A stretch of DNA of 64,000 nucleotides from Schmidtea nova (GCA_044892505.1 CM097882.1:507904001-507968000); one strand, 5' to 3'. Shown: positions 42,554 through 45,670, counted from the stretch's first letter. The notes: a model not told the origin generated them from the sequence alone. Program-made: numbers and translations.

Positions 42554-45500
42554 CTATACATTCATTATCGTCTTTCCCTCGTATCGTTCTTCATCTTCTA
42601 TTTGTTTCCAGAATTCCTTGCCTTTCGTCCTTCTTTGAAATTCTTTCTGTATTTCTTCTGGTATTTCTATTCTTTGTTTCATAATTTTTATATCTGGCCA
42701 TTGTATGGCTGTCGTTTTATTTCTCTTCCGGTATCTCCAATATACTATCATGCTTATTGTCAGTATTCCACATGCTATTAATATTCCTATACTAATTAAT
42801 CCTATTACTGTTTTTCCATTGTTTGTTTCTTTGCTTTTATTCTGATTTACTTTTGTTTCATTTTGGGTTTGAGCCTCCGGCTTCTTCTCCTTCTGCACTT
42901 GACTCTTGACTTTGTTCATTATTTCTTGTGTAGACCAATGGCGGTTTAGTAGTTGTTTGATGTCATTTTCCGTTTTCTGGTTTTCCACGCTTCCTGGTTC
43001 GATCTGTTGCCGCAGTTTCTCTGAGATCTGATATAATCCACATTCCGGTTCTTCTGAACCTTTTCTGATAAAGGTACATATCGCGTATGTCTTATTTACT
43101 TCCATTTTCCTTAATTCGACTTTTTCCTTATTCCCTGTTTCTTTACAGTGGGTTAGGTTGCCTTCTTCTACTTCTGGGTTATGCTTTGTCCAACATATTC
43201 CTTTCACTGTCTGATCGAGTCCTGTTAATGTCAGAGTTCTTTCTGTTTTAGTTGTTGGTTCCTTCGTTAACCCTTCTTCATCGAATTTCAGTATCTCTCC
43301 TTTTTGGAATGTCTTGCAATTCTCTATTCATGGTTGATCTTCTTGGATTCCTTTCTCCCATATACATATACTTCCTTCTTTTTTCATTTGTATTTCTTGT
43401 ATTTCGATTTCCTGGTTTGTTCGTGATCCGTCGCTTGTCTGAACTTGGTATTCCTTCCTTGGTTCGTTGTACCATCCCCAGCATACTTTGTTGCTACTTT
43501 GGCCTTTTCTCCTTATTGTCATGGCCATTTGTTCTATTACTATTCCTTTGTCGATACGTTTGGACATTGCTATTATTAACGCTATGCATACGAAATCCTG
43601 TTGGGGTGATACTCCTTCTCTCGTGTTATTTGTGCTTCTCTCCCCTTCTCTTGGTTTGTCCGTTGTATTTTTCCTCTGAGTTGCTGGTTGATCTATTGTC
43701 TTTTTAATCTCTTGCTTTGTTGGTTTTACTTTATACCATTCGAGTCTGCTCGTTTCATATTTTTGACATACTGTCTTAGGCAGCCCCGACTTCTTTTCCT
43801 TTTCTATTATGCATATCCGATGCATGGTTCCTCCATCCATTTCTTCTATTCTTAGTATATCCTGGTCGGATTTTCTGATTATGCATTTTAGTGGGTTATT
43901 TTCCCCAATTGGTTCATCTTCTCTATACCAACATATTTTCTCGGCTTCCTGGACATTTATTACTTTTATCCCTGTCTGTGGGTTTGTTGCTTCTTCCCTA
44001 TTGATTAATGTCAATATTATTGTTAGACCCAACCATTTTGAACTCTGCGGTAGGCTTCTGGTTCGCTTTTCATATTTTTTCTCTTTGCCTTTAATCTCTT
44101 TTATTTCCTTGTCTTCGTTGTTCATTCCTAGTTTTCCGATTTTTGCTTCTTTCTCATTCCTGGTCGGTTTTGGTTCTTCTCGTGCTTTTCCTTCTAGTAT
44201 TTCAACTCCATGGTTTGTACTATCTATTTTTGGCCATTGGGTTGTCGATTTTCTTGGGTTTGCCTTACGTATCCATATAGCTAATAATGCGATTATTACT
44301 GGTATGGTCGCTGTTAATATTCCTAAGCCAATTAGTTCTTTAATTTGTTTATTCTCATCTGTTTGTATAGATTCGCTTTGGTTGAACATTATTCCATATT
44401 GTCCCTTTAGTTTTCTCATTAATTGTTCTCGTTCCCCTTGTTTTCTTTTGACTTCTTTGATTACTTCTTCGGGTGTCCATTTTGCTTGAGGGTCGATTAT
44501 TATTTTTTCTGCGTCCATTTGTTCGTTTGGCTTAGTTCCTTGAACTCGAGTTTTCTTGTCATTCCTTTTGATGTCGCGTTTGTTGGTGTGTAGTAGGTTT
44601 CGCATCTTTCTTGTTGGTTTCCTAGTGCGTCCGTTTTTTCTATCGCGCATATTTCGTACTCGCTATTTAATTGTAGGTTTCCGATCTTGAATTCTTTATT
44701 TGTTTTTCTGCACTCTCTTGATTGTCTTCTTATTTGTTTCTGGACTATTACCCAACATATTTCTAATGTTTTATTCTCTATTTTCCATAGTATTAGAGTT
44801 GCTGAGGTCTTTTTCTCGGGTTTTGTCGTAACTACTTGGTTTATCGGTTGTTTATTGTTTTTAAAGGTAGTGGTGTACTTCGGTTTCCCTTTGTTTCGTT
44901 GTCTTATTTTATTTTTCCGTGTTAACGTTTTGGTTCTTGTTCCGGATGAAGTTGTATATAACCCGCATTCTAGGTCGTTTATCGTTATCTGATCACTTTT
45001 CTTTACCAGACATATTTCGTAGGTTTGTTTGCTTTTTAAACCTTTTATTTGTATCGTCGTTGCTCCTGTGCTTGTTTGACATTGTTATGTCATTCTTTTA
45101 TTTGTTTCCTTTTCGTACTTCCTCCAGCATACTCCTTTCACATTTGGTTCTAACTCTTTTATTTCTAATGTTATGTTTACTTTCTGCTTGATTTGTTTAT
45201 TTCTCCTCGTTCTCCTTTTGAACTTTATTATTTCTCCAGGTTGGAATGTTCTGCATTTTGTGGTACCTTTCTTGTTCTTCTCTTTTTCTAGTAGGCATAG
45301 TTTGTACATCTTATCTGCTTTTACTTCGGATACCTTAATTACTTTATCAGTTGTTGGTTTTCGACCTTTCCTTATTTCGTTTACGCCGATTTCCTCGTTA
45401 TTCCTCGCCCAATATTTTATGTTAGTATTCTGTGTATCTTCTACCTCTGTTATTGTCATAGTTTCGATTTCTATCCCTTCCTCTAATCGTTTTATTATTA

Positions 45501-45670
45501 TTAGTATGAGTGCTAAGCATAATACTTCCATCTGGTAAGACACTCTTTCGGTTTCGTTTATGGCAACTCTTGCTTCGGGCCTCTCTATTGTAATTCGTAT
45601 AGTTGGTGTTGTTTGCTTGTCTATTGCCTGGGGTTTTTTGTTTTCTGTTTCCTGTGTCTCTGTTCTTCCA
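42554..45670 (-). pseudogene. Membrane polyprotein with six FN3-like repeats and two TM anchors, 5'-truncated
   Basis: Track ORFs 45085..45543, 43328..44650 and 42554..43207 join through two single in-frame stops and one frameshift (~44540). Repeat signatures include IKGLKSKQTYEICL and IGNLQLNSEYEICA. TMs at ~44270-44335 and ~42737-42808 are each followed by QWPxI. Confidence 0.75.

Follow-up and report, generated by a model that had tools for sequence, protein, structure and literature searches.

Burro elements, as described in the consulted part of a review, are long terminal repeat (LTR) retroelements of ~30 kb with one giant open reading frame (ORF), in which a Gag with three CCHC knuckles, an env in frame between Gag and protease, reverse transcriptase (RT), RNase H (RH), integrase (IN) and ankyrins follow each other, together with a MATH/TRAF gene; they are proposed to interfere with host apoptosis and ubiquitination, through named parts that are cytosolic only (PMC6431247). 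Close to them in design are platyhelminth errantiviruses, which the consulted part of another paper describes with the order GAG-ENV-POL and an Env of the HSV/gB type (PMC13524379). Here we analyze a 64,000-nucleotide stretch of Schmidtea nova DNA (GCA_044892505.1 CM097882.1:507904001-507968000, called the window below), in which a region on the minus strand almost certainly encodes, in broken form, the C-terminal end of the one giant polyprotein of a Burro-type LTR retroelement. This end carries a duplicated module of repeats resembling fibronectin type III (FN3) domains. We put the probability at about 0.5 that the modules form predicted single-pass cell-surface glycoproteins which likely serve as accessory receptor mimics.

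The element shares with Burro all the structural features listed above, and its gene order and Env type are alike those of the errantiviruses, among which its Env looks by eye most like the row Smed_errantivirus_5 of the supplement, as far as a by-eye comparison goes. Its polyprotein has 5,650 aa, against 4,873 and 5,140 aa reported for Burro ORFs (PMC6431247). Unlike in Burro, the TRAF is a separate downstream ORF and no BIR is found. The assignment relative to Burro-1 to -4 is made by description, and the Env was compared by eye with the published rows. On the whole, the element class is already known, and the FN3 membrane module is absent from both sources: the consulted part of the Burro review mentions neither fibronectin nor signal peptide, and the consulted main text of the errantivirus paper mentions none of fibronectin, ankyrin and Burro. 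In the literature searched, FN3 modules are not reported for Burro or gypsy elements; the primary Burro description may bear on this novelty.

A genome DNA search with the window region, in which 40 of 497 candidates were scored, gives 41 matches, and among the candidates scored the other copies are 89-95% identical to the window copy. Comparison of the surroundings of three copies gives an element of ~29.5 kb with TG..CA ends, 4-bp target duplications and LTRs of 3.03 kb, the LTR pairs of two copies being 99.9% and 99.8% identical. In one copy, the sequence just after the 5' LTR is primer-binding-site-like, presumably resembling a tRNA-Pro site. One copy with a 5,650-codon stop-free frame serves purely as the coordinate reference. 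Its polyprotein runs from Gag (three CCHC knuckles) through a signal-like segment, a fusion protein with a transmembrane (TM) segment, protease, RT, RH and IN to two ankyrin blocks (Ank), an acidic linker and the FN3-like region, in agreement with the Pfam order CCHC-fusion protein-protease-RT-RH-IN-Ank (Ank_2 at E 5e-9). The Env between Gag and protease is a Monjiviricetes-type, gB-type fusion protein (Pfam E 5e-72). Weak matches to Bcl-2 (E 0.11) and Bcl-xL (E 1.2) lie before env, and weak matches to dCTP deaminase/dUTPase (E 0.18-0.57) lie between protease and RT, both as described for Burro; BIR and ubiquitin-like domains have no Pfam match in the polyprotein. After the polyprotein stop follow, in order, an ORF of ~118 aa, the TRAF (MATH_2 at E 5e-21 in the reference copy), a coiled-coil-like ORF, a signal-plus-TM ORF and the LTR.

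The window copy retains the 3' part alone (35387-45674), and its missing 5' half is not found within 40 kb beyond the window. On the minus strand, 42554..45672 encodes the C-terminal end of the Gag-Env-Pol-Ank polyprotein (~1,040 codons), the 5' truncation being at 45674. As the original prediction, made from the sequence alone, had stated, this is a single frame of more than 1000 codons with two stops and one frameshift: the frame 45672-42557 has ~1,039 codons; its stops lie at 45085-45087 and 43328-43330, and the frameshift falls between 44521 and 44536. It is the end of the 5,650-codon polyprotein, not a stand-alone gene. Comparison with intact copies, proposed as a check at the time, yields one polyprotein and not separate unrelated ORFs, with 20 of 87 scored copies keeping an open frame of at least 5,600 aa; module 2 is stop-free in 80 of the 87.

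In unbroken copies the region reads SP1-D1-linker-H2-D2-D3-D4-stalk-TM1-tail1-SP3-D5-linker-H4-D6-D7-stalk-TM2-tail2, with seven Cys-pinned repeats (D1 to D7) of ~78 residues. The window, where SP1 and D1 are absent, begins module 1 with the 11-residue hydrophobic segment H2 (45493..45525; all these positions are on the minus strand), which contains an invariant Cys and is followed by KR. Then come the FN3-like repeats D2 (45241..45474, three Cys in unbroken copies), D3 (44953..45183, four Cys, interrupted by a stop here) and D4 (44590..44811, four Cys), TM1 (44270..44332) and tail 1 (44036..44269, 76 aa, predicted cytosolic). Module 2 consists of the internal signal-like segment SP3 (44003..44035), D5 (43751..43984, paralogue of D1), the short hydrophobic H4 (43565..43594, paralogue of H2), D6 (43304..43546, paralogue of D2, also interrupted by a stop), D7 (43022..43249), TM2 (42737..42808) and tail 2 (42557..42736, 60 aa). 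TM1 and TM2 are both full-length transmembrane segments, as had been proposed, with basic residues after them. The six repeats of the original prediction thus correspond to D2-D7, and its consensus proves looser than given, D2 and D6 lacking its second Cys and D6 also its LxxxxxY; CW and two further Cys are common to all seven repeats, and a fourth Cys to five. One otherwise invariant Cys is lost in the window D2. The TM-adjacent, hydrophobic and repeat motifs it listed are at the expected places, KGICW being seen in the translation. Pfam gives nothing significant in the four unbroken pieces of the window frame. The pattern [CY]W-x33-40-C-x10-16-C occurs 4 times in these four unbroken stretches, and shuffles give at most one occurrence (29 of 2,000). 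The tandem duplication it had noticed is detectable inside the window by BLASTP (E 2e-8) and is borne out by a repeat tree and by modules 1 and 2 being ~30% identical.

The FN3-like fold of the original prediction is backed jointly by AlphaFold models, fold searches and profile matches, and we consider it very probable that the repeats have it. A profile of the repeats finds 55 matches among 1.84 billion proteins (best E 8e-10), and Pfam fn3 is present in 18 of the 20 scanned among these 55, mostly as tandem repeats; by our reading of the matches, their GVCW sits in strand C. The AlphaFold (AF2) model of the window D7 has six strands and a predicted local distance difference test score (pLDDT) of 79.8. 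Its best VIA match is fibronectin EDB (Z 7.8, root-mean-square deviation 2.4, 70 residues), and among the 50 highest VIA rows 48 are, judged by title, FN3 structures. In the model of SP1-D3, D1 and D3 are confident (pLDDT ~60-84 for D3, modelled from another copy) and H2 is a low-confidence helix. This model has 38 Foldseek matches at E <= 1e-3, the top one being fibronectin at E 2e-6, and a VIA Z of 8.5. The predicted D1, D3 and D7 are beta-sandwiches with G-F-C-C' and B-E sheets and an L-x5-Y E/F motif, in the usual strand numbering of FN3 domains. Because the ranges of the D7 model that align with FN3 structures begin at strand B, the repeats resemble FN3 domains that lack strand A, with predicted C-C' and F-G disulfides, and flanking sequence may supply a seventh strand: the strand-A slot in the D1 model is filled at just pLDDT ~29, and a low-confidence strand in the residues preceding D3 could represent A. 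The invariant CW of the repeats lies in strand C and is not the canonical strand-B Trp. LRR-FN3 (leucine-rich repeat and FN3) proteins such as ELFN share with the repeats the F-strand Y-x-I-C and a G-strand Cys, and weak matches exist to Fn3_ELFN (for 6 members out of 56, at E 0.047 or worse) and to ELFN2 (E 1.5). They differ in that the element has a polyprotein without LRR (no Pfam match) or Ig domains, with CW in strand C and strand A seemingly missing. An Atlas search gives no usable match for D6-D7, and for the module of a sister family, described below, FN3 leads below 0.9 only; a viral fold library gives no match at E <= 1e-3.

We then estimate selection from 41 copies, that is, 40 fetched of the 87 plus the reference, which were chosen for matching module 2; the measure is a ratio of nonsynonymous to synonymous (N/S) shared variants and is not phylogeny-aware. 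The N/S ratio is 0.02 in RH/IN, 0.15 in the ankyrins, 0.25 in the repeats, 0.30 in the hydrophobic segments and 0.38 in the linkers. On this measure the repeats are shown to evolve under purifying selection (p 4e-26 versus neutrality). D6 (0.46) and D7 (0.42) are more relaxed than D1-D4 (0.09-0.21). Among the repeat Cys, 25 of 26 are invariant in the 41 copies. In the 40 copies selected on module 2, neither module has a frameshifting indel, versus 12 in the 570-nt spacer. Tail 2 is conserved in several respects: WP is kept in 41 of 41 copies, the C-terminal residue is hydrophobic (V or I) in each of 40 copies and likewise in the sister family, and the tails of the two families are ~50% identical without gaps. 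We take the hydrophobic end to be a possible PDZ ligand. Two other resemblances of tail 2 were considered and not accepted, namely to the myosin VI RRL helix (E 0.75, non-significant and ranked below an unrelated match at E 0.13) and to a TIR end (no TIR match in the tail profile search).

As for topology, SP1, H2, SP3 and H4 have hydrophobic cores of 9-11 residues, too short for normal TMs. In a motif check, signal peptidase sites of the -3/-1 type are present after SP1 and after the signal of the sister family, and none is present after H2, H4 or the sister H. SP3, whose cleavage site is imperfect in most copies, is a homologue of the signal that opens module 1 and of the first signal of the sister family. 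The proposal of the original prediction that signal peptidase could cut at the short hydrophobic stretches is supported in part: two of the four segments resemble signal peptides, and two of the three stretches that it named, VLCLAL.. and FVCIAL.., have no -3/-1 site, are directly followed by KR and lack an upstream stop-transfer segment. Because just two of the four segments resemble signal peptides, two type I glycoproteins appear likelier than four products. NxS/T sequons number 12 in 938 ectodomain residues versus 6 in 1,762 Pol/Ank residues (one copy), a higher density that speaks for a lumenal location of the ectodomains. In the mechanism that we infer, held about as probable as the receptor role itself, the ribosome would already be at the endoplasmic reticulum for Env when Pol and the ankyrins are made in the cytosol. 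SP1, as an internal signal, would reopen the translocon, so that D1-D4 enter the lumen and TM1 stops transfer; SP3 would reopen it again for D5-D7, and TM2 would anchor the polyprotein end. Module 1, and probably module 2 as well, would be released by signal peptidase, with H2 and H4 likely uncut. Among the alignments shown from four unlabelled contig sets of one study, coverage is even and there is no GT..AG joint, which is uninformative on RNA.

The sister family, found through its TRAF gene (C2:179.21-179.25 Mb and C1:352.33-352.37 Mb), has one module with four repeats that ends in a tail of the tail-2 type. In the repeat tree, D2 and D6 group with sister d2 (96/95 support) and D4 with sister d4 (99/99). 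From this grouping and the single module of the sister, a duplication within the family of the window element is the likely origin of the second module. Between the two families, Env is 97% and RT 93-95% identical, the repeats are 24-55% identical, Gag 45-72% and the accessory region 26-56% (ankyrins and Gag together 33-70%). Such a mosaic points to recombination or to rapid evolution of the accessory parts. Two smaller env-bearing families (3,401 and 3,393 aa; multicopy, one copy of each read) have no FN3, Ank or TRAF and no repeat above 5.3 bits, with RT 49% identical versus 93% for the sister family. Where the FN3 module is present, in two families, Ank and TRAF accompany it each time. Searches with module 2, the sister module and the repeat profile find no homologue beyond the host genome, which is weak evidence only, and a Fn3_ELFN search of the host genome gives nothing above the cut-off. 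A fragment of a smaller env-bearing family (45672-47929, plus strand; 1,690 candidates in the host genome) adjoins the truncation point 45674, and consists of an RNase H fragment and an exonuclease-like ORF of ~350 codons without Pfam match, presumably of the DEDDh type.

What the glycoproteins do, whether as a host-signalling receptor mimic or as a particle attachment protein, has to be judged from these features. We favour the accessory receptor mimic on three grounds: the module is found together with ankyrins and TRAF, the successful env-bearing relatives do without it, and its tail is conserved. On this view the ectodomains, at the cell surface, would recognise a ligand or receptor of the host, and a partner in the cytosol would be bound by the conserved tail; acting with the TRAF, ankyrin and Bcl-2-like parts of the element, the module would weaken defence or cell death in cells with an active element, and it would be dispensable for transposition as such. 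As an analogue, LMP1 of Epstein-Barr virus is a viral receptor mimic using TRAFs according to the consulted part of the source (PMC3697994), alike in having a membrane protein beside a TRAF function and different in that the element encodes its own TRAF. A bolder reading, which is rather unlikely, is that the element encodes a receptor-adaptor circuit of its own: Cys-stapled FN3 receptors without strand A would be cut from the Gag-Env-Pol polyprotein and signal through the element's own TRAF, alongside ankyrin and Bcl-2-like proteins, as a host-control kit in the style of large DNA viruses on an LTR element. The ankyrin, Bcl-2 and decoy kits of poxviruses are a comparable grouping in a virus-like genome. 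A selected, duplicated surface-receptor module would provide the extracellular arm for the proposed Burro meddling, as a concrete and testable protein, and would widen the capacity of an LTR polyprotein to as many as three membrane proteins interspersed among Gag and Pol.

Several points weigh against this interpretation. For D7 alone, Foldseek gives no match at E <= 1e-3, FN3 matches being mixed with T-cell receptor Ig domains; a commonplace arrangement can yield a VIA Z near 8; and D2 is modelled poorly (pLDDT 24-52). The N/S ratios take no account of phylogeny and come from copies picked by their module-2 match. The SP3 site is canonical only in the 4 of 41 copies that have Gly at this place, so that module 2 may remain uncleaved, and H2, strongly hydrophobic with KR after it, could stop transfer and flip D2-D4 to the cytosol. 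In addition, no host donor gene is found, the 20 host FN3 loci scored among 92 reaching at most 8.5 bits.

Of the other roles, the one most worth weighing, although somewhat unlikely, makes the glycoproteins attachment or tropism proteins on enveloped particles of the element, partners of the gB-type fusogen, with a tail that binds Gag or the sorting machinery. A conserved fusogen beside a variable attachment protein is a familiar pattern, and the 97% identity of Env against 24-55% of the repeats would fit it, as would the co-translation of the module with Env and Gag and the clusters named 'epidermal cell surface receptor' among the sub-threshold FN3 leads of the Atlas search (0.77). An analogue is Drosophila Sas, whose tail, by the consulted part of the report, attaches to dArc1, a Gag-derived protein, and directs vesicles to Ptp10D cells (10.1101/2022.09.06.506798). 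However, env-bearing relatives without the module are abundant, and ankyrins and Gag diverge too (33-70%), so that the contrast may reflect Env/RT recombination and not function. More improbable is a topology with all four short hydrophobic segments as signals, each module then giving a secreted single-domain decoy (D1, D5) and a membrane protein. The shortness of the four cores, the conservation of H2 (N/S 0.10) and its resemblance to SP1 and to the sister signals, where an aromatic-x-PE precedes ~11 hydrophobic residues, speak for this; the lack of -3/-1 sites after H2, H4 and the sister H, and of a stop-transfer segment between D1 and H2, speaks against it, as does the lack of GT..AG joints in the four unlabelled runs, themselves uninformative on RNA.

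Two further ideas are very improbable. A captured class I cytokine receptor, signalling to JAK through Box1, was suggested by the FN3 fold and the juxtamembrane WP, and IL11RA/CRLF2 clusters appear among the sub-threshold Atlas leads (0.77-0.80). Such receptors are defined by a Box1 PxP and WSxWS, by the consulted part of a review (PMC7444064), and the Box1 tail of the original prediction fails here: PxP or PxxP occurs in 0 of 41 copies in either tail, WSxWS in 0 of 41 nor in the sister copy, and the WP of tail 1 is kept in 13 of 41 and lost in 28. Jak1_Phl and STAT_bind have no match in the host genome, where SH2 has 46; this is suggestive only, SH2 being a control that is not specific to the two families. 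Equally remote is the suggestion that the module is an env analogue, that is, a fusogen, or functionless captured debris. It is indeed membrane-anchored and element-encoded, and the window copy itself is broken. The fusogen part is contradicted by the element's own gB-type fusogen in the same frame, the Pfam fusion-protein match lying ~2,000 residues upstream with none in the module, and by the absence of any fusion-protein fold among the structure matches of the repeats. Debris is at odds with the purifying selection and with the modules' freedom from frameshifting indels in copies selected on module 2.

Downstream of the polyprotein, still on the minus strand, the window holds an open accessory ORF for the TRAF (40625..42004; RING, TRAF zinc fingers, coiled coil and MATH, with MATH_2 at E 6e-21), a coiled-coil-like ORF of ~360 aa (39448..40548) and an ORF of ~190 aa with an N-terminal signal-like and one TM-like segment (38800..39408). 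An expansion of TRAFs is reported in planarians (PMC6109357), part of which may be element-borne. In a MATH_2 search of the genome, 76 of 150 listed matches have a 476-codon frame and are dispersed, and 2 of 3 fetched lie in the sister element; many other matches cluster on C2 405-455 Mb. The 3' LTR (35387..38611, minus strand, TG...CA, ~3.2 kb) contains two ORFs of ~200 codons (36635-37210 and 35858-36466). It is of a different subtype from that of the reference copy, being 80-85% identical at the ends only, with the internal region at 91%; the two ORFs are present in the LTRs of both subtypes.

Other features are also found in the window, their main coordinates all being on the minus strand. 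Another family contributes a related LTR-type ORF (212 aa) at 52114-53240, with 9,858 candidates in the host genome. At 24621-28986 there are two ORFs with a weak Endonuclease_7 match only, which look like the protein-primed DNA polymerase B of Polinton-type elements, and similar copies lie near other loci. An Argonaute/Piwi-like fragment (E 0.004) is at 31642-32271, of which 175 nt are repeated at 99% identity 18 kb away (50072-50246). The segment 16620-17072 is presumably a mariner-like transposase fragment, going by its motif. Finally, a compact gypsy element at 57229-62965 has LTRs of ~300-400 bp at 94-97% identity and open gag and pol frames.
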